A stretch of DNA of 43,477 nt from the NCBI GenBank assembly GCA_903854535.1, contig CAINWR010000071.1, forward strand, positions 1-43,477, read 5' to 3'. This DNA comes from Candidatus Staskawiczbacteria bacterium (GTDB lineage Bacteria; Patescibacteriota; Minisyncoccia; Minisyncoccales; Staskawiczbacteraceae). Made by a program: the position numbers and the translations under genes. Below, piece by piece: positions 3,251-41,459 of this stretch; positions within the stretch are counted from its first letter, which is position 1; the number at the start of each line of letters is the position of its first letter. The notes under the pieces are model-generated. The model was not told the DNA's origin and did not search any database. It was given only the letters and a program-made list of their open reading frames with translations.

Positions 3251-3279
3251 TTGACATCATTTTTTGTTTAGAATACAAT
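3251..3279 (+). promoter_or_regulatory. Promoter of the NrdD-tail gene
   Basis: TTGACA-N17-TACAAT. Confidence 0.5.
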
Positions 3280-3706: not shown

Positions 3707-3783
3707 GCTCGACAATAAATTTTTTCTGCGCCGAGAGCCTCTCTACGGGGCACCCTCGTGCTCGAAAAAATTAATTGTCTCGC
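3707..3783. repeat. Palindromic element (family C) in the SOD gene leader
   Basis: AT-rich outer arms (cgacaataaattttttc / gaaaaaattaattgtctcg) enclose a GC-rich core. It shares the 19-mer gcctctctacggggcaccc with 15543-15561. Confidence 0.8.
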
Positions 3784-3793
3784 AAACTTGCTT

Positions 3794-4456
3794 ATGGAAA
3801 AATATAATTTACCAAAATTACCATATGAATATAATGCGCTTGAGCCATATATGTCTTCGGAAGTTTTAACACTGCATCACACAAAGCATCATCAGGCTTA
3901 TGTGAATTCTGCCAATGATTTAAGTGCAAAGTTAGAAGATGCAAGAAAAAACCTGCCTGCCGGACAGGCAGGTAATTTGGATTTAGATTTTAAATCAATT
4001 TTAAAATCATTGTCTTTTAATGTGGCAGGTCATATTTTGCATGAAACATTTTGGAAAGTAATGGCTCCACAAAATTCTGGAAAAAATAATATTGAAAATA
4101 ATGCGCCAAAACTTTTAGAGCAAATAAATAAGGATTTTGGAAGCCTTTCCGCCCAAGGCGGACCAGCCTCGGGCTGGGATAGATTTAAAAAAGAATTTTC
4201 AGAAACAGCAAAATCAGTTGAGGGATCAGGCTGGGCTTTGCTAACTTGGCACAAAGAACATGGAAATTTAAATATAATTCAAGTTGAAAAGCATAATGTA
4301 AATCTTTATCCAGAGCAGAAAATTTTACTTGCTTTAGATGTATGGGAGCATAGTTATTATTTAGATTATAAAAATGATAGAGCTAAGTTTGTGGAGAATT
4401 GGTGGAATATTGTAAATTGGCAAGAAGTTGAGAAAAAATTTCAAAACTGCTGTTGA
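3794..4456 (+). CDS. sod: Fe/Mn superoxide dismutase
   Basis: N-terminus LPKLPYEYNALEP, plus HHTKHHQAYV, AGHILHETFW and DVWEHSYYLDYKNDR metal-ligand motifs. Start moved to ATG 3794 because the ORF-track extension only translates a repeat element. Confidence 0.9.
   Translation: MEKYNLPKLPYEYNALEPYMSSEVLTLHHTKHHQAYVNSANDLSAKLEDARKNLPAGQAGNLDLDFKSILKSLSFNVAGHILHETFWKVMAPQNSGKNNIENNAPKLLEQINKDFGSLSAQGGPASGWDRFKKEFSETAKSVEGSGWALLTWHKEHGNLNIIQVEKHNVNLYPEQKILLALDVWEHSYYLDYKNDRAKFVENWWNIVNWQEVEKKFQNCC
3951..3973. repeat. GC-rich palindrome inside the SOD gene coding sequence
   Basis: acctgcctg-ccgga-caggcaggt encodes LPAGQAG in frame. Confidence 0.7.
4149..4177. repeat. Two adjacent GC hairpins inside the SOD gene coding sequence
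   Basis: ccgcc-caa-ggcgg and ccagcc-tcg-ggctgg encode SAQGGPASG in frame, between the conserved DFGS and FKKEF segments. Confidence 0.7.
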
Positions 4457-8095: not shown

Positions 8096-8188
8096 CTCGG
8101 CAACAAACTTTTTTCGGCTGTTGGTAGCCCTCTTTGTCTCCCTTCGGGAGACAAGTAGACCAAGGCCTTCAAAAAGTTCATTGCCTCG
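8096..8188. repeat. Family-C-like nested palindrome with a C(UUCG)G hairpin, in the leader of the HxGH nucleotidyltransferase gene
   Basis: Outer arms ctcggcaacaaacttttt / aaaaagttcattgcctcg. The inner perfect hairpin ttgtctccc-ttcg-gggagacaa lies at 8134-8154. Confidence 0.75.
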
Positions 8189-8202
8189 TTCCCTTATTTC
8201 CT

Positions 8203-8619
8203 ATGAAAAGAAAAAAAGTTTTAGTTTTTGGGACATTTGATGGATTGCATAAAGGACATTTGTATCTTTTTAAACAGGCAAAAAAGCATGGTGATTATTT
8301 AGTGGTTGTGGTAGCAAGAGATTTGACTGTCAAAAAAGTTAAGGGGCATTTACCAAAATTTGAAGAGCAAGAAAGAGTAAAGACGGTTTATAAATGTAAA
8401 TTGGTAGATGATGCTCAGTTGGGTAATTTAAAAAATTATTATAAAAAAATAAAAGAAATAAAACCTCAAGTAATTTGTTTAGGTTATGATCAAGTTGCTT
8501 TTGTAGAAAATTTGGAAAAAGAGATAGAAAAGTATAAGATGAAAATAGAAATCATTCGGCTAAAGTCATATTTACCAAAAAAATATAAATCATCATTATT
8601 AAACGAAAAATCAGCCTAG
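8203..8619 (+). CDS. HxGH nucleotidyltransferase (cytidylyltransferase / FAD-synthetase-like family)
   Basis: VLVFGTFDGLHKGHLYL signature. Start moved to ATG 8203 because the upstream part of the ORF-track call translates a palindromic element. Confidence 0.75.
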   Translation: MKRKKVLVFGTFDGLHKGHLYLFKQAKKHGDYLVVVVARDLTVKKVKGHLPKFEEQERVKTVYKCKLVDDAQLGNLKNYYKKIKEIKPQVICLGYDQVAFVENLEKEIEKYKMKIEIIRLKSYLPKKYKSSLLNEKSA

Positions 8620-8842
8620 GCCGTTTTTGTTTGTATGAAAAAAGGAGAAAGCGTCCTTTACAAATGGACATTCTTTCTCCCTGACTAGAAGCGAGATCGC
8701 TGTCGGTGAAGTGGCCCTATGCCACCTCGTTTTTTTCTGCGATCGCACAGCGCTAAGCTCTCTAGTCCTAATAATATATTTGCATATTTTAGTAAAAAAG
8801 TCAACAGTTTACGATATTTGCAAAGTTTGGTATTATAAAATA

Positions 8843-8905
8843 AGCGTTTAGCGTTTAGCGTTTAGCGTTTAGTTACTAAACCCTAGAACCTATACCCTAG
8901 ACCCT
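8843..8905. repeat. Heptad-repeat hairpin (family A): (gcgttta)x4, loop, then (ctaNacc)x4
   Basis: Read directly. The arms pair over ~29 positions with a C-C mismatch every 7 nt. On the sense strand 7 of 8 heptads begin with TAG or TAA. It ends 7 nt before the serS ATG. Confidence 0.85.
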
Positions 8906-15600: not shown

Positions 15601-16419
15601 TTGTCATATAGAAAGCATCACGTAAAATCTAAAATAAAGAAATTAAAGCCGAAAAAATCTATTTTAAAAAATAAGTGGTTTTGGTATATAGCTTTAATTG
15701 TGATATTGTTTTTTGCAATTTCATATTTTTTATTATTTGCAAAATTTTTTAGTATAAATAATATTAATATTTCTGGAAATAAAGATATATCTACTGAAGA
15801 TATTTTTAAAATATCAAATAATAAAGTTAATAAGAAACTTTTTTCTTTAGGAAGTTGGCAAGTTATTTCAAGAAGTTTTTTTCTAACAAATCCAAATTAT
15901 ATTAAAGAAGAAATTGTTAATCAATTTCCTAAAGTAAATGAGATATTGGTTCAAAAAAAAATGTTTCAAACTTTGGAGATAGAAATTAAGGAGAGAGAGG
16001 CAAAAGCTATTTTTTGTAATAATCAGTTAAATAAAGATTGTTATTTTGTAGATAAAAGTGGAATTGCTTTTGATTTTTTGGAAACTTTACCAACAGGATT
16101 TTTTATAATAAGAGATGATAAAGAGGCTGTAGCTGGAAAAGAGATTGTTAATCAAAATATAATTGATGGTATTTTAAAGGCAAAACAAATATTAAAAGAT
16201 AATTATAATATAGACATTGAAGATGTTTTAATTACAACCCCACTTAGATTAAATATCAAAACCTCAGAAAATTGGCAGGTTTATTTAACAACTGATTCTG
16301 ATTTAGATACACAAATTACAAAACTGGATTTGTTGTTAAAGGAAGAGATTACAGAATCAGTTCGTAAAAAATTGCAGTATATCGATTTACGCTTTAAAGA
16401 CAGAGCGTATTATAAGTAG
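15601..16419 (+). CDS. ftsQ: FtsQ/DivIB-like cell division protein (TM anchor plus POTRA)
   Basis: Basic N-terminus and a single TM helix, followed by an INNINISGNKDISTEDI POTRA-like start. TTG start taken from the ORF track. Confidence 0.6.
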   Translation: MSYRKHHVKSKIKKLKPKKSILKNKWFWYIALIVILFFAISYFLLFAKFFSINNINISGNKDISTEDIFKISNNKVNKKLFSLGSWQVISRSFFLTNPNYIKEEIVNQFPKVNEILVQKKMFQTLEIEIKEREAKAIFCNNQLNKDCYFVDKSGIAFDFLETLPTGFFIIRDDKEAVAGKEIVNQNIIDGILKAKQILKDNYNIDIEDVLITTPLRLNIKTSENWQVYLTTDSDLDTQITKLDLLLKEEITESVRKKLQYIDLRFKDRAYYK

Positions 16420-16447
16420 GTTGTAGTTTGTAGGTTGTAGTGAGTAG
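16417..16447 (+). repeat. Five TAG triplets at exact 7-nt spacing, the first being the ftsQ stop codon
   Basis: tag gttg tag tttg tag gttg tag tgag tag, with TAG at 16417, 16424, 16431, 16438 and 16445. Confidence 0.9.
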
Positions 16448-16450
16448 CCG

Positions 16451-16547
16451 TCATTGCGAGGAAGTTGCAACTGACGAAGCAATCTCAAAGGTTGTTTTGT
16501 AATCAGCAGCTGGGATTGCTTCGGGTATTGCCATACCCTCGCAATGA
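16451..16547. repeat. Nested inverted repeat (tcattgcgagg...cctcgcaatga enclosing cgaagcaatc...gattgcttcg)
   Basis: Outer 11-bp arms at 16451-16461 and 16537-16547. Inner 10-bp arms at 16475-16484 and 16514-16523. Confidence 0.85.
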
Positions 16548-16570
16548 TAATTAAAATCGTGCAAGAGAAA

Positions 16571-16600
16571 AGCCCGTGTCCTTGTTAGAACGCGGGCTTT
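16571..16600 (-). terminator. Terminator of the GC-rich orphan gene 17208-16645
   Basis: agcccg...cgggct stem flanked by A and T runs. Confidence 0.6.
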
Positions 16601-16644
16601 TTGCATTTCTGCACTGAATCAATTGCCTTCCGTGGCAATGATCC

Positions 16645-17208
16645 CTACTTTTTCTCGTACTTTGCTAAGAGCGTGTCCATACGCTCTTTGGCCGGGCCAA
16701 ATTGTTTTTTGAGGTCAACGTACTCGTCGTACGTGACCTCGGAAATACTGCCGTCAGCGTTATGGAACCCCTGAACGGCAAATGGCCAGTTAATGCAGGA
16801 GATTTTCCCCTGCGCCTCGCACAGCTCCCAGACTTCCTTGCCGGGACTTTTTTTTCGGTCCAGACGGAACAAAATGTCCGTTGACACCGAGTCGAAACTG
16901 TCAATTTTGCGGTCCATGATCGGCGTCGGGTCGAGCACGAAGCTCAGTGCCGACGAGTACCTGTGTTGGTACTCAAGCTCAAGTTTTTCGAGGCGCTTTT
17001 TGTAAGACTCGTACTCGCCTTGCCCAAACTTGGGCTGAGCGAGATTGAACACTACCCATGCCGTGTCACGGTCCACCTGGCGGTCGTATTCGCAGACCTG
17101 CGATTCGAACCGCCACTGGGCGAATGAGCGGTATGCCCATTTCCCAGGAAAGAAAACGATTCCCATCAACCCAGCGATCAGAATGGCTTGGAAAAAACGT
17201 GCCTTCAT
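16645..17208 (-). CDS. Membrane-anchored hypothetical protein (187 aa), GC-rich orphan
   Basis: ATG 17208 is preceded by GGGAG. One N-terminal TM helix (FFQAILIAGLMGIVFF). By eye about half G+C. It has its own consensus promoter and terminator. Confidence 0.6.
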   Translation of the reverse strand: MKARFFQAILIAGLMGIVFFPGKWAYRSFAQWRFESQVCEYDRQVDRDTAWVVFNLAQPKFGQGEYESYKKRLEKLELEYQHRYSSALSFVLDPTPIMDRKIDSFDSVSTDILFRLDRKKSPGKEVWELCEAQGKISCINWPFAVQGFHNADGSISEVTYDEYVDLKKQFGPAKERMDTLLAKYEKK

Positions 17209-17270
17209 TGAAAGTCTCCCGTGTAAAGGTGCTTGGGCAGGGGACAACGTCCCCATTCACCCATATATTA

Positions 17271-17299
17271 ATTATAGCATAATTAAGCAAGCTTGTCAA
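17271..17299 (-). promoter_or_regulatory. Consensus sigma-70-type promoter for the GC-rich orphan gene 17208-16645
   Basis: Minus strand reads TTGACA-agcttgcttaattatgc(17)-TATAAT. Confidence 0.6.
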
Positions 17300-17345
17300 G
17301 GGATTGTGAGCAGAATAAAATAATGATATAAAAAAGAATAAATGA

Positions 17346-17418
17346 GTTGAAAGTTTATCAAGTTTTTAAAGTTTATCAAGTCGACTTTATAACTTGTAAC
17401 TTTATAACTTGATAAACC
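17346..17418. repeat. AT-rich tandem-repeat hairpin (family B) ending just before the adk ATG
   Basis: Left arm has repeated aaagttt/atcaagt units, centre is gtcgac, and the right arm has complementary ataactt units. gtttatcaagtt (17353-17364) pairs perfectly with aacttgataaac (17406-17417). Confidence 0.8.
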
Positions 17419-18123: not shown

Positions 18124-18870
18124 ATGATAAGCATAAAAACCCAAGAGGAAATTGAAATAATGGCTGAAGGTGGCAGAATTTTAGCAAATGCTTTAAAACA
18201 ATTAAAAGTTAAGGCAGTAGCTGGAGTTACCACTAGGGAGCTTGATAAGTTTGCCGAAAACTATATTTTAAGTTGCGGGGCATTACCAGCTTTTAAAGGA
18301 TATTCAGGGTTTCCTAATGCTTTGTGCGCTTCTGTAAATGAAGTAATTGTTCATGGAGTTCCAAGTGATTATGCTTTAAAAGAAGGAGATATTGTAAAAT
18401 TGGATTTAGGGGTTTTGTATAAAGGTTTTAATACAGATTCTGCTATTACAGTTTTAATCGGGCAAAGTTCTTTTGAGAAGCAAAGATTATTTAAGGCAAC
18501 TCAAAAAGCCTTAAGATTAGGTATTAAGAAAGTAAAACCTGGAAATACAACTGGAGATATTGGAAATACTATTGAAAGATTTGCTACAGATCAAAATTTT
18601 GGCATTGTAAGAGAATTAACTGGCCATGGAATTGGCAGAAAAGTTCATGAAGAACCAGAAGTTTTAAATTATGGTAAAAGGGGGACTGGGGTGAAGTTAG
18701 TTGAGGGTATGGTAATTTGCATTGAGCCAATGTTAACTTTGGGGGATTGTAAAATAAAAAAAGCCAATGATGGTTTTGGTTATCAAACAAAAGATGGTTC
18801 TGTCTCAGCCCATTTTGAACATACAATTGTAATTACCAAAAATGGAGCCCGCATCTTGACTGAAATTTAG
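18124..18870 (+). CDS. map: Methionine aminopeptidase type I
   Basis: VHGVP, D..LD, GHGIGRKVHEEP and EPM metal-ligand motifs. Confidence 0.95.
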   Translation: MISIKTQEEIEIMAEGGRILANALKQLKVKAVAGVTTRELDKFAENYILSCGALPAFKGYSGFPNALCASVNEVIVHGVPSDYALKEGDIVKLDLGVLYKGFNTDSAITVLIGQSSFEKQRLFKATQKALRLGIKKVKPGNTTGDIGNTIERFATDQNFGIVRELTGHGIGRKVHEEPEVLNYGKRGTGVKLVEGMVICIEPMLTLGDCKIKKANDGFGYQTKDGSVSAHFEHTIVITKNGARILTEI

Positions 18871-18954
18871 TTTGGGTGTAATAATATATTTAGTACAGAT
18901 GCTTATTGTGAGCATTTTTTGTTTCTCGCGACTCAACAGAAAAGGGGCACTCAG

Positions 18955-19317
18955 ATGCCGGAATTGGTTTCTCAACAAAAGGACGATGTCCTGGTTGTTC
19001 AGTTCACTTCCCAGAAGATTTTGTCCGATGTGTTTATTACCCAGATCGGCCGAGAGTTGCTGGAGTTGGTCGACGAGTCGAAGGGCAAAATGTTGCTTGA
19101 CTTTCAGGGTATAACGTTCATGTCGGCGGCCATGTTTGGCAAGATCGTCCTGGTCAAAAAGAAGTGCGATGTGGGCAAAACGCAATTGAAGCTTTGCAAC
19201 CTTGCTCCTTCTGTTGATGAGGTATTCGCGATTATTTGGAACAATCGGCACAGGGATTTCTTAGGCATTTATGATTCCGTTGAGGAGGCACTCAAGGCTT
19301 TCAAAAAACCGAAATAG
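18955..19317 (+). CDS. STAS-domain protein (anti-sigma-factor-antagonist-like), GC-rich orphan
   Basis: LLDFQGITFMSAAMFGKIVL resembles the SpoIIAA/RsbV phospho-Ser loop. AAGGGG lies 7 nt before ATG 18955. GC-rich composition. Confidence 0.7.
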   Translation: MPELVSQQKDDVLVVQFTSQKILSDVFITQIGRELLELVDESKGKMLLDFQGITFMSAAMFGKIVLVKKKCDVGKTQLKLCNLAPSVDEVFAIIWNNRHRDFLGIYDSVEEALKAFKKPK

Positions 19318-19364
19318 TTTAATTGATAGCGATTTCGTCTCGGTCCGGTTCTGTTGTTCAATGT

Positions 19365-19394
19365 GGTGGCTCACTTCCGGGCGCCACTTTTTTT
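19365..19394 (+). terminator. Terminator after the STAS gene
   Basis: gtggc...gccac stem followed by a T7 run. Confidence 0.5.
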
Positions 19395-19436
19395 GTTGTA
19401 ATTTTTTCTTGGTTTGTGGTAAAATTAATTATAATT

Positions 19437-19504
19437 AGCGTCTAGAGTATAGCTTCTAGGGTTTAGTCATTTTTTACTAAACGCTAGACGCTAAACGCTA
19501 AACC
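19437..19504. repeat. Heptad-repeat hairpin (family A), inverted orientation
   Basis: agcgtctagagtatagcttctagggtttag / loop / ctaaacgctagacgctaaacgctaaacc. Close to the reverse complement of 8843-8905. It ends 3 nt before the tpiA ATG. Confidence 0.85.
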
Positions 19505-19507
19505 TTT

Positions 19508-30061: not shown

Positions 30062-31033
30062 ATGAATAAAATTAATAATCTCGAACTTTTTGATTTTTCA
30101 CTAAATAATCCAGAGCCTATTTTGGACGATTATTATTTAAAGAAAGGAAATCTGGTAATTTCTGATGATCCTAAAAAATCTACAGATTTGATGCTTAGAA
30201 ATTTAGATTTAATAGAATGTATTTCGGCATATAGTTTTGCCAAAAAGAGTAATAATAAAAGCTCAATTAATGATGCCTTGGTTAGTGCGCTTGTTTTAGT
30301 GAAAAGTAAAAATATAAATTTTTCTGAATTTGTATCATTTTGGCCAATTGTTGATATCTCATATAGTTTGTTTTGCAAATTAGAAGAAGATGATCAGAAA
30401 AACATCTTAAAAGAGATAATGAATAAATATGTTGAGTTGAGGCACGGATTATATTCTAAAATAGGGTATAGTGCGACAACTTTGCAGGTTGGAAAAGATG
30501 CAAAAGCACATAAGGAGTCAGGTAATTTAGCAGTTTATAAATTATCTAAATTACTAGAAGAAAAAGGATTTTGTAACGGGGATACCGATGATGTCGGCAC
30601 CTTTTTTTCTGGTAAATCTAAAAAATATTTAGTTGCTGATAAGGCCGGCAAAAAACTTTTTAAAAAAATAATTAAAGAGAAGGGAATCAAATTTAGGTGG
30701 AGCCGTGGAAAAGAAAATAAAATGCCAGATTTTCTTATTCGAGACATTGAAGATATTTATATACTCGAACATAAACATATGAAAGAGGGTGGAGGGGGTC
30801 AAAATAAACAGGTTAATGAAGTGATTGATTTTGTAAATTTTAGCTAAAGTGATGATAAGGTACATTATGTTTCATTCTTAGATGGTCTTTATTTTAATCT
30901 TTTTGCCGATGATAGATATCTAAAAAAAGGAAAAATCTTTAATCAATTGAAGGGTGTTAAAAAAGCATTATCTCAAAATAAAGGAAATTATTTTGTTAAC
31001 ACGGCAGGTTTCAAAAAATTAATTGATAAATAA
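30062..31033 (+). pseudogene. PD-(D/E)XK restriction endonuclease interrupted by an in-frame TAA at 30845-30847
   Basis: PDFLIRD...ILEHK catalytic-type motif just before the stop. The same frame stays open for 61 more sense codons (30848-31030), with no in-frame ATG, before a TAA at 31031-31033. Confidence 0.6.
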
Positions 31034-31082: not shown

Positions 31083-31202
31083 GATATTACTTTGATATAC
31101 TGCCTTAATCACACTTTTCAATTTGGCAAGTGTCAAATGAGTGTGTTGTTCATTTATTAGCTCAGAAAGGGTTCGCCCGGAGAGCTAGAAAGGTGGTTGG
31201 TA

Positions 31203-31850
31203 ATGTATTCGTCCATCAACTTAGTTGATTTTGTAACTGGAAGAGCGAAAGTTACGCGAGGGGAAATCTCTACCGAGGTATGGTGTGAGATACTCCAAGA
31301 GGTATTGTGGCAAATCAAGCCTAGTTTGAAGTACTTGGATGGTTTCAAACCTCTTGCTCAGTTGCTCGATGGCAAGGAAGAGTTTATGAGCGGACATGGC
31401 AGATTTGGCATGTCGGATGATGTAGTGCCCAGTTTTAAGGGTATGGGCTTTGATGAGAGGACAAAGTTTTTCCCCTTGGCTTTGTGGCAGTATCCGAAGC
31501 AAGAGGCAAGTTGTGAAGAGAAATGTGGTGCCTTGTTGTTAGCTTTGGGAGAAAATGAGGGTAGTTTAGCTATTTTGAATCTTTCGCGCTTTAGGCAAGG
31601 CGACCACTATGCAGTGTGTGCTTGCTCTTTGGTAACCACTACTTCGGTACAAGGCATTACGAGCGTGTTAGAACCGAATGGGAAAGAGGTGAGTGGATTA
31701 ATTGATAAAGGATTTGTCTATGTGTCGTGCATATTAGACAGACTCTACCTTGCCTTTTATTCCACCGTAGATAAACGGGAAAAATATTTGGTCTCCATGC
31801 GTGCAAGTTGCGACTGGTTGCAACGGGCATATCAAAGGTGTTCGGGTTAA
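31203..31850 (+). CDS. Cys-rich hypothetical protein (215 aa), GC-rich orphan
   Basis: AAGGTGG lies 6 nt before ATG 31203. GC-rich composition. Flanked by stem-loop terminators at 31053-31082 and 31884-31925. Confidence 0.55.
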   Translation: MYSSINLVDFVTGRAKVTRGEISTEVWCEILQEVLWQIKPSLKYLDGFKPLAQLLDGKEEFMSGHGRFGMSDDVVPSFKGMGFDERTKFFPLALWQYPKQEASCEEKCGALLLALGENEGSLAILNLSRFRQGDHYAVCACSLVTTTSVQGITSVLEPNGKEVSGLIDKGFVYVSCILDRLYLAFYSTVDKREKYLVSMRASCDWLQRAYQRCSG

Positions 31851-31883
31851 GGTAGCGAAGAAAATTGTTATTTGACAACCAAA

Positions 31884-31925
31884 AACCCGCTCGTCGTTGC
31901 TCGACGAAGCGGGTTCTTTTTTTAT
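31884..31925. terminator. Bidirectional terminator between the GC-rich orphan gene and the convergent PEGA gene
   Basis: acccgctcgtcg-ttgc-tcgacgaagcgggt with a T-run on the plus strand and a T-run on the minus strand. Confidence 0.75.
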
Positions 31926-33902: not shown

Positions 33903-33931
33903 TTGACAATGTCAAGAGAATATAGTATAAT
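33903..33931 (+). promoter_or_regulatory. Consensus promoter upstream of murA
   Basis: TTGACA-atgtcaagagaatatag(17)-TATAAT. Confidence 0.6.
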
Positions 33932-37379: not shown

Positions 37380-40349
37380 TTATTTTATCATTTTTCTTAG
37401 AGCGCAAAATTCACAATCTTTATTGTTGCAAGTTTTATCCCAAAAGCTTAAATCAAGAATTTCTTTTGCAACTTGCTTTATTTGATTATCTAAATCATCA
37501 ATCATCTCTTTTGTGATTACAAAAAATTCTTTTTTATAATTTCCTTTTTCATTTGGCTGAATAAAATCAATTTCTCCAGAAATCATATTAAACTTTTTAT
37601 TTTGGAAGTTATTTAAAAGTAAATTATAAAAAGTTAATTGACGCAAATAATCATCTTTCATTTTAGCTTTACCAGTCTTGTAATCTACTACATTTACATT
37701 ATTATTGGAATCTAATATTTCAATTTTATCAATTTTACCATTAATAAATATATTTTCTCCAAGCTCAATACGAGATATATTTAGTTCATTTAAAATATTG
37801 TTTTTCCAGCTTTTGTGATAAAAATCATAATAGCCTTTTAAAGCAATGTTGCCTTTTTCAAGCATCTCAATGTATTCATTTTGCATAATCGGTTGTTTTT
37901 GTAGTGAGTCTTTAAAGCGACTTAGTAAATATTCTTTCTTTGGGGCTTTGTTGTTTGCTATTGCATCAAAGTAATTTTTTAGTGCATCATGTATTGCAGA
38001 ACCAAAGAGCATAAATTTATTTTGTGTACCAGGAATTCTAACTAAACTATTAAAAAAGTAATTCCAAGGGCACTCTAAATAATTATTTAAAGCTGTTACT
38101 GAAAGACCATTCTTAATAAATAACTCATTTAGAAATTCCTTTTCTTTTATTGTTGGTTTTTCGTCAATTTCTTTTGTAAATTCTAAAGCTTTTTCTGTAT
38201 CTTGTGATTGATACCCTGCGTATTTTAATTCATAAATTTTAACAAATTCTGGTTTTATTTCTTGAATATACATGCAGGGTAATTTGTCTTTGCCTTCTTG
38301 ATTATTGACTGCATATGTAATAGTAACTTGTTTTTTTGCTCGAGTTATTGCAACATAAAATAAATTTCTTTCATCTTGATTATCATCATTTTCAAAATCT
38401 TCATCTATTTTATTTAACATAGAAAATACTTGTACTGGTAATTTTATATTTTCATGGCTTCTACGGTTTCCCCAATGCCCATCGTGGGCATTTATGATAT
38501 AAACTTGATCAAATTCAAGGCCTTTTGATTTATGAGCTGTCATAAGTCTAACTCGCCCTTGAGTATAACCAAGGCCCTTGCTTTTAATTGAGATATTATG
38601 TTCGCGAATTACATCCAAGTACTCAAAGAAATCATTTAGCGTGTAATCTTTATGATTAGTAATCAGGTCTTTTACTTGATCGAAGAAAACCCCCAATTTT
38701 TCAATTTTTTCTGCAGATAATGGATCAGATAGAATTTTTGCTAGAAATCCTGAATCACGAATAATGTCTTCAAAAATCAAAATAGTATTTTTGTTATGAC
38801 TTATACTTTGCTTTTTCCATAAAGATAATTTTTTATAAATTTCTTGTATTTTTTCTATTTCTTCAATTTTTGCTTCTTTTAATAATTTTTCAGATTTTAT
38901 AACATCATATAAACTTAAATTTCCACGCTTAAAGCTAGAAAGTTTGTAGATATCTAGTGCTGGAATATTGAAAATATCAACATATAAGAGCTCTATAAGT
39001 TCACGATTTTGACCAAAATTATGTATTGCCCTTAGAATGATTAAAAGCTTTTTTATATCTTGATCATCGAGTATGTCTTGATCTGATTCAATTGCAAATA
39101 ATATGTTAAATTTTCTTAAAAATCTCGCAATATTAAATACATCTTTGTTCTCTCTATATAAAACTGCAATTTGTTCTGGTTTATGTCCATTATCAATAAG
39201 TTTTTTTATATCTTCTGCTAGAAAATAATATTCTGCATCAGGATTAGAAAATGGCCTTATGTTTATTGGATTTTCAGGATGATTGGAGTTTGATTGTAAT
39301 TTAATTGAATTTGGTTTTAAATCATATGATGCATTTAAAATAGTTTGTGTTGATCTGTAATTATGTTTTAAGGAAATTTCTTTGACGTTTTTATATAAAT
39401 TCTTAAAATATAGAAAGTTTTCTAAAGATGCGCCTTGAAATCTAAAAATTGCTTGTTTTTCATCTCCTACAATAAATAAATTAGGCTTAGTATAGTAATT
39501 TGCTAGAAGTTCTAGTATTTTATTTTGTGCGCTATTAGTGTCTTGGTGTTCATCAACTAAAATATATTGATACTTCTCTTGCATTATTAATAGTAAATCA
39601 TTATTTTTTTCTAAAGCTACTTTTACTTCTACTATCATATCAGAAAAATCATAAAATCTATTGACTTGCATTTCTGTCTGATATTTCTCATATACACTGA
39701 TTAATTCTTTATTTCTTGCAATATTCTTTTGTAAAGCTATGTATTTGCCCTTCATTTTGCCTTTATAAGCCCCAGAGTTGTGATACAAATCTTCAATATT
39801 TTCAAAATTATATTCTTCTTGTTTTACAAGCTTTTTAAAATCTTCTGGCAAAAAGCCTTGTTGTTTTAAATCTGAAATAGCTTTTATTATTGCTGATATA
39901 TAGTAATAATTATCACCCCAAGGTTTTAATGTAGCAAAATTATTTTCATCAATTATTTTTTTAATAATTTTAATTTGTTCTACATTAGAAATATTTGTAG
40001 AGCCAATTATTTTTTCAAATTCATCTGGATATTGTTTTATAATATTATTAGCAAAACCATGAAAAGTAGTAATATTTACGCGGTAAGCTATAGTGCCGAT
40101 AATTTCTGATAAATTTTTACGCATAGAAGCTACAGCACTTTCAGTAAATGTTAATGCCAAAATTGCTTCTGGCGGAGTATCGGTTTTATTTAAAATATTG
40201 GCAATTCTCATAGTAAGTAAGTGCGTTTTCCCTGTGCCAGGACCTGCAACTACCATAACTGGTCCGTCAATTTCATCTACACCCATTTTTTGTTCTGGGT
40301 TTAGTTTCTTGTAAGCATTATTAAATTTTTCTCTAAAATCTATTGACAT
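37380..40349 (-). CDS. UvrD/PcrA-type SF1 helicase fused to a C-terminal 4-Cys PD-(D/E)XK (AddB-like) nuclease
   Basis: AGPGTGKTH (I), VDEHQDTN (II), GDEKQAIFRFQGA (III), NYRST (IV), HKSKGLEFD (V), VAITRAK (VI). C-terminus has ECPWNYF, VVDYKTGK, QLTFY and C-x5-C-x2-C. Confidence 0.85.
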   Translation of the reverse strand: MSIDFREKFNNAYKKLNPEQKMGVDEIDGPVMVVAGPGTGKTHLLTMRIANILNKTDTPPEAILALTFTESAVASMRKNLSEIIGTIAYRVNITTFHGFANNIIKQYPDEFEKIIGSTNISNVEQIKIIKKIIDENNFATLKPWGDNYYYISAIIKAISDLKQQGFLPEDFKKLVKQEEYNFENIEDLYHNSGAYKGKMKGKYIALQKNIARNKELISVYEKYQTEMQVNRFYDFSDMIVEVKVALEKNNDLLLIMQEKYQYILVDEHQDTNSAQNKILELLANYYTKPNLFIVGDEKQAIFRFQGASLENFLYFKNLYKNVKEISLKHNYRSTQTILNASYDLKPNSIKLQSNSNHPENPINIRPFSNPDAEYYFLAEDIKKLIDNGHKPEQIAVLYRENKDVFNIARFLRKFNILFAIESDQDILDDQDIKKLLIILRAIHNFGQNRELIELLYVDIFNIPALDIYKLSSFKRGNLSLYDVIKSEKLLKEAKIEEIEKIQEIYKKLSLWKKQSISHNKNTILIFEDIIRDSGFLAKILSDPLSAEKIEKLGVFFDQVKDLITNHKDYTLNDFFEYLDVIREHNISIKSKGLGYTQGRVRLMTAHKSKGLEFDQVYIINAHDGHWGNRRSHENIKLPVQVFSMLNKIDEDFENDDNQDERNLFYVAITRAKKQVTITYAVNNQEGKDKLPCMYIQEIKPEFVKIYELKYAGYQSQDTEKALEFTKEIDEKPTIKEKEFLNELFIKNGLSVTALNNYLECPWNYFFNSLVRIPGTQNKFMLFGSAIHDALKNYFDAIANNKAPKKEYLLSRFKDSLQKQPIMQNEYIEMLEKGNIALKGYYDFYHKSWKNNILNELNISRIELGENIFINGKIDKIEILDSNNNVNVVDYKTGKAKMKDDYLRQLTFYNLLLNNFQNKKFNMISGEIDFIQPNEKGNYKKEFFVITKEMIDDLDNQIKQVAKEILDLSFWDKTCNNKDCEFCALRKMIK

Positions 40350-40406
40350 TATTATTTTATTATATTATTATTGATTCATGATTTTGCTTCGAGGGATATG
40401 GCTTAA

Positions 40407-40625
40407 ATGTTAAGCCAACTCTTCAAACAACTCGTAGGAGATAGGAGAAGTGTCGTGACTAAAGCGCAAATGTATATTGGGATGAGTTTGGCGGTAGTGT
40501 GCTCCCTCCAGACATATTTTGGTCTCGAGAATCATTCCAGCTCGTTACTGGCGGGCGCGGTCTTTTCGGGACTGATATCCATCACCAACTTTTTTTGTGG
40601 CGTTGGCTTCTATCTGAAGTCGTGA
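40407..40625 (+). CDS. Small two-TM membrane protein (72 aa), GC-rich orphan
   Basis: Two hydrophobic helices. GAGGG lies upstream. A strong terminator lies at 40657-40689. The start codon sits in the loop of a 7-bp hairpin. Confidence 0.45.
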   Translation: MLSQLFKQLVGDRRSVVTKAQMYIGMSLAVVCSLQTYFGLENHSSSLLAGAVFSGLISITNFFCGVGFYLKS

Positions 40626-40656
40626 ATAGCGACCATGGCGCATTGGCGTCGGCTCG

Positions 40657-40689
40657 GCTCGCGGTGTGATTTTCACTGCGAGCTTTTTT
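40657..40689 (+). terminator. Terminator after the small membrane-protein gene
   Basis: gctcgcggtg-tgatttt-cactgcgagc followed by a T6 run. Confidence 0.75.
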
Positions 40690-40723
40690 ATTATATAATT
40701 TTTTCGTGTAAGGTTTCATCATC

Positions 40724-40751
40724 TGTGTAAGGTCTCACCTTACACAATCTA
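40724..40751. repeat. REP-like hairpin, copy 1 (10-bp perfect stem, ctc loop)
   Basis: tgtgtaaggt/ctc/accttacaca followed by atcta. It overlaps the transposase stop codon. Confidence 0.85.
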
Positions 40752-41459
40752 ATCTATGAACAATTTATCGTTTTCAGCGCGGGTTTTTCCATTTAAAATC
40801 ATTTTGGAATATTCTTTATATTTTTCAACATCATCAAAAATTTCTCCAAGAACTCCCTTGTTAATTATAACAGATTCCCTTTCTTTTAGATATTCTTTAT
40901 TTGTGCACCAATCATATTTGTTGGTAAAATTTAGTGCTTTATTAAAATCTATTAAACCACTTTCTTTTAAATTAGGCTCTAAAATTTGTGCAGGATTTAT
41001 AATATTAACATAAAATAATAAATACTCTAATTGCTCTTGGCTCTCAGAAACAACAGATTTAAATACGCCCTCAAATAAGGCACCTTTTCGTTCATATTTT
41101 TTATTAAAATACATGGAGTATCCTGTTGTAAACTTTTGCATAAATTTTGAAACGCCACCAGGTTTTATTTCCTCTAAAATTAAATGAAAGTGATTTGGCA
41201 TTAAGCAATAGGCTAAAATATTCACAAGTAAGTTTCTTTCTTTATTTTTTAAAAATTTTTTAACAGTATTAAAAGTTGTTTTTCCATAAATTCTATTAGT
41301 TTGCCATAATGCATTGAAGGTAGAATTTTCGTCATTAAATGCAAACAAGCCCAATAAAAACCTCCAACGATCATAATCGTTCATAAAAATATTCCGTTTG
41401 TCCACGCCTCTGTTAAAAATATGGATGAAATCACCAACTGCAAATTGTTTTCTATTCAT
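40749..41459 (-). CDS. IS200/IS605-type Y1 (HUH) transposase, RAYT-like
   Basis: CLMPNHFHLIL HUH motif and a YFNKKYERKGALFEGVFKS Tyr region. Flanked by identical hairpin repeats. Confidence 0.8.
   Translation of the reverse strand: MNRKQFAVGDFIHIFNRGVDKRNIFMNDYDRWRFLLGLFAFNDENSTFNALWQTNRIYGKTTFNTVKKFLKNKERNLLVNILAYCLMPNHFHLILEEIKPGGVSKFMQKFTTGYSMYFNKKYERKGALFEGVFKSVVSESQEQLEYLLFYVNIINPAQILEPNLKESGLIDFNKALNFTNKYDWCTNKEYLKERESVIINKGVLGEIFDDVEKYKEYSKMILNGKTRAENDKLFID

Follow-up and report, generated by a model that had tools for sequence, protein, structure and literature searches.

Several abundant envelope proteins of bacteria are translated from stable, highly structured mRNAs, among them the transcripts of Escherichia coli lpp and ompA and those of S-layer genes. 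Integron cassettes are promoterless, end in attC sites and cluster beside an integrase. Islands of deviant composition are routinely taken as signs of recent horizontal transfer. Templates of structured RNAs are enriched in G+C in A+T-rich genomes (PMC8632094), and large G+C-rich structured noncoding RNAs have come from scans of G+C-rich intergenic regions of such genomes with the Breaker laboratory pipeline (PMC8632094, PMC11109978). Here, we compare with these systems the gene X, a 187-amino-acid (aa) minus-strand gene at 17208-16645 in a 43,477-nucleotide (nt) stretch of DNA from Candidatus Staskawiczbacteria bacterium (contig CAINWR010000071.1). The whole stretch is called the window, and coordinates are counted from its first letter unless a relative is named. 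X shows the signature of a transferred island in what is probably a conserved resident gene, and its mRNA appears to be selected to fold tightly.

The likeness to the lpp, ompA and S-layer mRNAs is one of organization. X is predicted to form a single-gene unit with a very strong promoter, a protective 5' stem-loop, a hairpin-rich transcript and a strong terminator, and its product would be a small envelope-anchored protein. X has, however, no sequence or fold relationship to these systems. Its folding pervades the coding body, with a G+C excess of about 20 points, and its codons oppose those of the genome's own highly expressed genes (the G+C fraction at third codon positions, GC3, is 0.17 in ribosomal-protein genes).

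The window has a mean G+C content of 31.2%, and a 150-nt scan revealed a single long G+C-rich segment at 16382-17322 (48.7%), within which 100-nt intervals peak at a G+C fraction of 0.61. The coding sequence (CDS) of X has a G+C content of 52.5% and lies between two plus-strand genes, ftsQ (POTRA_1; G+C 23.7%, GC3 0.165) and adk (ADK; G+C 31.3%, GC3 0.17). These values agree with an earlier note on this DNA, which had described a minus-strand block of about half G+C between plus-strand flanks of one third or less. The codon usage also deviates from that of the host genome, with a GC3 of 0.68 in X against 0.18 in the native pool. Pooled over seven of the ten family genes, AGA accounts for 0% of Arg codons (65% in native genes), ATA for 2% of Ile codons (32%) and TTA for 6% of Leu codons (52%).

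This composition extends to the related contigs, denoted here by L numbers. All ten readable X genes have a G+C content of 50 to 57% and a GC3 of 0.56 to 0.71, against a GC3 of 0.11 to 0.26 in their neighbors, save rplL in L094 (0.34). Between deep pairs of X genes the fourfold degenerate sites are at chance identity, and their G+C fraction (GC4) is still 0.5 to 0.8. The GC4 expected after neutral amelioration is at most 0.34 to 0.50, an approximate value from rough F81 arithmetic based on native fourfold sites since the splits, and that observed is 0.48 to 0.80. The G+C richness of X is a stable property of the whole family and not the fading mark of a recent transfer.

The folding of the X CDS was compared with that of shuffled sequences. 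Its minimum free energy is -219 kcal/mol, against -181 ± 7 kcal/mol for dinucleotide shuffles (z = -5.4; the L001 gene has z = -4.3). In synonymous shuffles, codons are swapped among positions of the same amino acid, which holds the protein, the codon usage and the G+C content constant. Against these the X CDS has a z of -4.6, and the CDSs of all ten family members range from -2.9 to -7.8, with none of 40 shuffles matching the observed energy. The 28 native genes have a mean z of about -0.6 (27 lie between -2.5 and +1.3 and one is at -4.3), and four copies of the neighboring STAS gene and two Planctomycete genes, described below, have a z of about 0. The sense strand is favored over the antisense strand in nine of the ten X members, and a structure on the antisense strand was rejected on this ground. 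The start of the CDS is open (z = +1.0 for the first ~90 nt), and the message is highly structured from about nt 60 on. X combines folding beyond its composition and coding content with hairpins at both ends of the transcript.

The structure is in part shared between relatives. The consensus fold of five X orthologues reaches -96 kcal/mol, against -61 ± 5.6 kcal/mol for codon-column shuffles (z = -6.2). Compensatory changes occur in 34 of 163 predicted pairs, compared with 17.5 ± 3 in shuffled alignments and 6 to 15 in slid controls; the share of paired cells is 84%, against 35 to 44%. With nine sequences the z of the consensus fold drops to -2.6. Such a transcript of roughly 700 nt might act as a scaffold, sponge or regulator besides coding for a protein. 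Its folding z and G+C content are like those of large structured noncoding RNAs; like the RNAs from the Breaker laboratory pipeline it is conserved and has a promoter and a terminator of its own, and the hairpins of its untranslated regions (UTRs) are conserved, one lying directly past the stop codon. This dual function is nevertheless quite unlikely. Unlike those RNAs, the X transcript carries an open reading frame (ORF) that is clearly under purifying selection and whose product has a confidently predicted structure; a scan against Rfam gave no match at the gathering threshold and none overlapping the X locus at E ≤ 1; and the fading of conservation in the nine-sequence alignment suggests general foldedness over one precise architecture.

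The distribution of the family bears on its age. Eight close homologues were found (50 to 80% identity, all metagenomic), and a profile search of 1.84 billion cluster representatives gave 13 matches at E ≤ 0.001, of which 11 belong to the family and 2 are spurious and repeat derived. One distant cluster, on a contig of 738 kb, carries the annotation Ca. Staskawiczbacteria. The representatives yielded no donor, and every context inspected was an A+T-rich genome of the candidate phyla radiation (CPR). Searches of GTDB genome contigs retrieved no relative, and no homologue was found in phage records, plasmids or viral contigs. X and adk are transcribed divergently in the window, L001 and L005; the contigs of L003/L006 and L007 cover only the ftsQ side, where X is convergent on ftsQ as in the window. 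On its other side X has ftsQ as neighbor in four lineages and secY in L005, and the distant members (L094, L096 and L103), in Staskawiczbacteria-type genomes, sit between rplL and a tRNA gene.

Orthologues of the same composition stand beside adk or ftsQ in L001, L003/L006, L005 and L007, an outcome that the earlier note had itself named as adverse to its view and that argues against recent acquisition. In the contexts inspected, the closest homologues of X do not belong to another, compositionally matching taxon, as those of the STAS gene do. The reading frame is under purifying selection, with dN/dS (the ratio of nonsynonymous to synonymous rates) of 0.09 to 0.24 and changes dominated by third codon positions, and its length is conserved (166 to 232 aa among 18 homologues). 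Judged by these loci and sequences, X is an old, conserved resident gene, probably inherited vertically, and not a recent foreign insert. It resembles an ameliorating island in the sense of Lawrence and Ochman in its atypical G+C content, GC3 and codon usage and in having its own signals. It differs from one in having the same locus and composition in all relatives found, no known donor and no mobility features, and in a composition that is uniform across deep divergence of the family.

The sharp change of composition at both edges of the island could also have come from an assembly chimera or from a contaminant of a G+C-richer organism. This is refuted by two other assemblies, a European Nucleotide Archive (ENA) scaffold and a Logan per-run contig, which are 100% identical across both junctions, and by the same arrangement in four other lineages from other samples.

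Another origin to be weighed is a mobile, promoter-carrying gene cassette spreading among related CPR genomes, which corresponds to the recurring acquisition proposed in the earlier note. Members of the X family occupy two distinct loci; the STAS gene lies at map/tpi in the window and L001 and at uvrB/ruvA in L100; L010 has another G+C-rich ORF with a perfect promoter after map; and the fourfold sites of X resemble one another somewhat more than those of flanking genes do. Moreover, as in integron cassettes, these are compact single-ORF units of foreign-looking composition that recur in one genome. Unlike integron cassettes, however, they have their own promoters and terminators and are scattered between core genes. 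At X no flanking direct repeats, target duplication, mobility gene, integrase or attC-like site was found, and the gene's own promoter is perfect. The scan of the window found no tRNA gene, and the nearest transposase is 23 kb from X. The locus is stable in five lineages, the divergence of X in protein and at synonymous sites is comparable to that of flanking genes, and X is missing from the viral and plasmid sequences searched. A palindrome beside X, at 16451-16547, is absent from relatives. A cassette of this kind is very unlikely, and an integron cassette or an insertion borne by a miniature inverted-repeat transposable element (MITE) was rejected, given the lack of repeats, attC site and integrase and the lack of the palindrome at orthologous loci.

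We propose instead that 17299-16560 (-) would be a resident, vertically inherited single-gene unit in an uncultured, ultra-small Parcubacteria/Staskawiczbacteria-like CPR host. Its product would be a lineage-specific protein of about 190 aa, anchored in the membrane by its N terminus and with a helical domain without recognizable relative. A perfect extended-consensus promoter would drive strong transcription of a message that carries a 5' hairpin, a Shine-Dalgarno (SD) sequence and an open first ~60 to 90 nt of CDS, followed by a body packed with conserved helices and a 3' end made of two small hairpins and a strong terminator. The unstructured first ~90 nt fit the requirement of a translated message. 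Selection at the RNA level would keep the G+C content high: X would stand at ~52% G+C in a 31% genome because stable helices need G and C, and rRNA and other structured RNAs are likewise G+C-rich in A+T-rich genomes. The likeliest purpose would be a long-lived, nuclease-resistant and heavily used mRNA yielding an abundant envelope protein, possibly a surface component of a probable episymbiont. The coding status, conservation, composition, excess folding and covariation are shown by the comparisons above; we infer that folding causes the high G+C content, that the mRNA is long-lived and that the protein is abundant. In our best reading, selection on RNA accounts for the island better than recent acquisition does. 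The whole chain, in which a resident single-gene unit has its G+C content held by selection on RNA folding and gives a long-lived mRNA and an abundant envelope protein, seems to us evenly poised between right and wrong.

The main rival of this proposal is an ancient horizontal transfer whose G+C-rich donor is unsampled, followed by slow or incomplete amelioration, in which the signals, the codons and some RNA structure would have been inherited. Exactly such a case lies 1.7 kb from X in the STAS block, which contains an anti-sigma-factor antagonist gene. The CPR copies of this gene (window 18856-19395 [+], L001 5790-6152, L100 5001-5369 and L097 4001-4363) share 68 to 72% identity with a tight cluster of Planctomycete proteins (Ca. 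Anammoximicrobium), where the gene is flanked by groESL and a SpoIIE-type phosphatase gene, the genome has 61% G+C and the GC3 is 0.77. The CPR copies have a GC3 of 0.53 to 0.63 and no excess folding, and they stand alone with their own promoter, SD sequence and terminator. By its sequence, the STAS block appears to be an old, Planctomycete-type transfer, and this origin may be a clue to the host or partner organism of these bacteria. X itself bears an SD sequence in an SD-less genome, its codons and amino acids are foreign looking, and some drift toward A+T is seen in L001 and L005.

We nevertheless hold an ancient transfer of X to be unlikely. The 1.84 billion representatives hold no homologue outside Staskawiczbacteria-type A+T-rich contexts, whereas the STAS donors were found at once. 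The GC3 of X is uniform among members that are just 20 to 35% identical and occupy two loci, and the GC4 contrasts with the amelioration estimate given above. A transfer would also leave unexplained why all ten members fold more strongly than their synonymous shuffles, a property that the Planctomycete genes and the STAS copies do not show.

A recombination hotspot, with G+C-biased gene conversion raising the local G+C content, is extremely improbable. The G+C content is elevated over the entire unit, including the UTRs, as it would be under such a process, and the STAS block provides a high GC3 without excess structure. The island, however, begins and ends exactly at the promoter and the terminator, and gene conversion does not account for folding beyond that of composition-preserving shuffles.

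Several observations weigh against selection on RNA folding as the force that holds the G+C content of X high. The A+T-rich native ORF at 30062-30847 (+), which encodes 261 aa without Pfam match, has a folding z of -4.3; strong folding therefore does not strictly need high G+C. (Only one coding sequence of the window is more structured than this ORF.) Conversely, the STAS gene keeps its GC3 of 0.53 to 0.63 without excess folding, and therefore a nonstructural cause can hold G+C high here, or amelioration is slow. The consensus structure of X was predicted from the same five sequences that were used to score it. In addition, the covariation term of RNAalifold is a net penalty (+10.4), and many pairs are broken in one or two sequences. 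First and second codon positions of X are also shifted toward G+C, and its amino acid composition is un-native, which would fit a foreign origin equally well. The polarization of synonymous changes, by majority rule or against the Planctomycete STAS gene, is muddied by parallel G/C-to-A/T changes that mimic an A/T-to-G/C flux, as does change in the donor lineage. Finally, both the stability of the X mRNA and the abundance of its protein are properties that we infer.

If selection on folding does maintain X, it would be an unusually clean bacterial example in which synonymous sites along an entire CDS are constrained by RNA structure. It would also be a caution for the composition-based detection of transfer in A+T-rich reduced genomes. 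Moreover, it would offer a way into the study of gene expression in CPR bacteria that are uncultured, with SD-less and SD-led initiation in one genome. The X protein, as modeled, would be a candidate major surface component of a probable episymbiont, and the Planctomycete-type STAS gene a testable clue to the partner organism. Tentatively, and with a confidence somewhat short of even, we suggest a protein-coding gene that evolves like a structured RNA, with selection for folding of the entire mRNA, kept over deep divergence, holding it about 20 G+C points above its genome, and in a distinct SD-led class beside the SD-less native genes; its transcript would perhaps be functional itself, and the Planctomycete-type STAS gene perhaps a clue to the host.

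The transcription unit of X is complete and self-contained (Table 1), and the promoter, SD sequence, reading frame and stem-loop/T-run terminator that the earlier note had placed here were all recovered. The predicted signals are those of a sigma-70-type promoter and an intrinsic terminator, with consensus hexamers, 17-bp spacing, a G+C-rich hairpin and a U-run. Exact TTGACA-17-TATAAT occurs twice in the window, against 0.04 occurrences expected by chance, and the same consensus is found upstream of X in L001, L005, L094 and L096. The promoter string atgctataattaatata is near-identical in L001, L004, L005 and L096, where the proteins are just 30 to 70% identical, and the conservation of the promoter string around TGCTATAATTAATATA exceeds that of the X protein. 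Transcription probably starts near 17264. The 5' hairpin has counterparts of differing sequence in L001 (GGGGAauucCUCCCC), L007 (GGGGAauuuCUCCCC) and L091 (GGAGACacaaGUCUCC), and taken alone its z is modest (-0.5 to -2.4). An SD-like motif upstream of X is retained in L001, L003, L005, L090, L091 and L096, L007 having only GGGCGG. A 203-aa ORF from ATG 17256 was rejected: it starts within the 5' hairpin, lacks an SD sequence and is unsupported by orthologues.

The 3' UTR is likewise maintained. Hairpin 1 has a compensatory variant in L007 (UUCGCC/GGCGAA) and counterparts of other sequence in L094 and L096 (GGCGC-N4-GCGCC) and in L103, and the stem of hairpin 2 is UGCA/UGCA in the window, GUGU/ACAC in L001 and GCAA/UUGC in L007. 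The complete 3' UTR folds with a z of -5.5 in the window and of -4.8 to -8.4 in six relatives, and the layout of a post-stop hairpin followed by a terminator recurs with differing sequences in both X subfamilies. The terminator, with T-runs on both strands, is potentially bidirectional and may be shared with the convergent ftsQ. Between it and the ftsQ stop codon lies the palindrome at 16451-16547, which is 97 nt long with 37-nt arms (TCATTGCGAGG...CCTCGCAATGA). This palindrome folds with a z of -5.7, contributes to the G+C island, resembles a repetitive extragenic palindromic (REP) or MITE hairpin and shows no attC core motifs by eye; it is confined to assemblies of the source genome.

Table 1. 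Predicted features of the X transcription unit and positions of the other G+C-rich blocks of the window
Feature	Position	Strand	Basis or remark
-35 hexamer TTGACA	17294..17299	-	12/12 consensus match together with -10
Extended -10, TGcTATAAT, spacer 17 nt	17271..17279	-	Consensus match
5' UTR hairpin, core GGGGAC-guu-GUCCCC	17234..17263	-	Fold prediction
SD sequence GGGAG, 7 nt upstream of ATG 17208	17216..17220	-	Anti-SD duplex -7.4 kcal/mol (native median 0)
CDS of X, 187 aa: N-terminal transmembrane helix, then helical domain	16645..17208	-	Translation
3' UTR hairpin 1, begins 1 nt past stop codon (GGAUCAUUGCC...GGCAAUUGAUUC)	16616..16644	-	Fold
3' UTR hairpin 2: 4-bp stem, GAAA loop	16602..16613	-	Fold
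Intrinsic terminator, stem 16601-16587/16582-16568 (15 bp), 4-nt loop, U-rich tail	16560..16601	-	Fold
Zinc ribbon, 48 aa	~3156-3002	-	Promoter/SD-like/terminator unit
Orphan ORF, 65 aa	4453-4780	+	Promoter/SD-like/terminator unit
Orphan ORF, 96 aa	6794-6385	-	Promoter/SD-like/terminator unit
STAS gene	18856-19395 (gene 18955-19317)	+	Promoter/SD/terminator unit
Orphan ORF, 215 aa	~31120-31915	+	Promoter/SD-like/terminator unit
Orphan ORF, 72 aa	~40343-40690	+	Promoter/SD-like/terminator unit

The X protein has a hydrophobic N terminus (FFQAILIAGLMGIVFF), the anchor already recognized in the earlier note, and no match in Pfam, NCBIfam, PHROGs or PADLOC. An AlphaFold2 model from 18 sequences has a predicted local distance difference test (pLDDT) score of 92.9 and a predicted template modeling (pTM) score of 0.82; an earlier model from 9 close sequences was discarded (pLDDT 59). 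In the model the protein is all helical, and a long N-terminal helix takes in the hydrophobic anchor. Comparison with PDB sequence profiles gave a best E of 0.64, and Foldseek searches with the model gave a best E of 0.29 in the PDB (template modeling score about 0.25) and of 0.18 in BFVD, none of which is significant. The model indicates that X is a new orphan family, membrane anchored and with a confident new helical fold.

X is one of seven units in the window that combine a promoter, an SD or SD-like sequence and a terminator with a small, G+C-enriched ORF, a count that upholds the earlier estimate of at least seven similar blocks. An anti-SD duplex of -6 kcal/mol or below was found for 2 of 40 native genes against 5 of the 6 G+C-rich blocks tested (Mann-Whitney P = 6e-5), in line with the claim that native genes lack SD sequences; these genes have a GC3 of 0.14 to 0.25 and A/T-rich, G-poor leaders. 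The parallel claim that they lack such promoters did not hold. A perfect sigma-70 consensus at 33903-33931 (+) precedes the native murA-mreB; canonical promoters are thus used by native genes too, and a further native gene lies behind an 11/12 match at 3251. As for the proposed recurring acquisition, a recurring SD-led single-gene class and the foreign origin of the STAS gene stand, and the recent acquisition of X does not. No evidence was found for the insulation mechanism offered beside it.

The blocks are heterogeneous and have no one shared origin. The five other orphan blocks gave no match in the family libraries, save sub-threshold zinc-ribbon Pfam matches for the 48-aa protein. A single homologue (69% identity) was found for the 215-aa block, whose CDS is structured (z = -3.1), and the CDS of the 65-aa block has a z of -2.3. 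L010, a Ca. Staskawiczbacteria bin and the closest named genome (its Map protein is 62% identical to that of the window), carries at 1543-2427 a different G+C-rich orphan ORF of 216 aa, which lies after map and is preceded by a perfect TTGACA-17-TATAAT, so that units of this cassette style appear again in the lineage with other cargo. A gene for an IS200-type Y1 transposase at 40749-41459 (-) adjoins the 72-aa block, and another Y1 transposase (L094 1974-2693) lies ~700 nt from the X homologue of L094, an association that may be coincidental.

Upstream of native operon-first genes there are G-poor leaders made of short tandem words (17347-17411, 19470-19505, 8840-8905 and 16416-16443). The words are TTKAAAGTTTATCAAGT (twice) and ACTTTATAACTTG (twice) for adk, GCGTTTAG (four times) for serS and of the CTAAACGCTAGACG type for tpi, and these leaders may serve SD-independent translation. 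A G+C-rich noncoding stretch at 8640-8740, after the gene at 8134-8619, includes a hairpin and T-run (8711-8725). This stretch contains no more than a tiny ORF, gave no Rfam family match and may be a small RNA. The superoxide dismutase gene sod (3758-4456) contains a near-perfect 10-bp G+C-rich palindrome at 3951-3973 (ACCTGCCTG...CAGGCAGGT), and its coding sequence folds with a z of -2.5.

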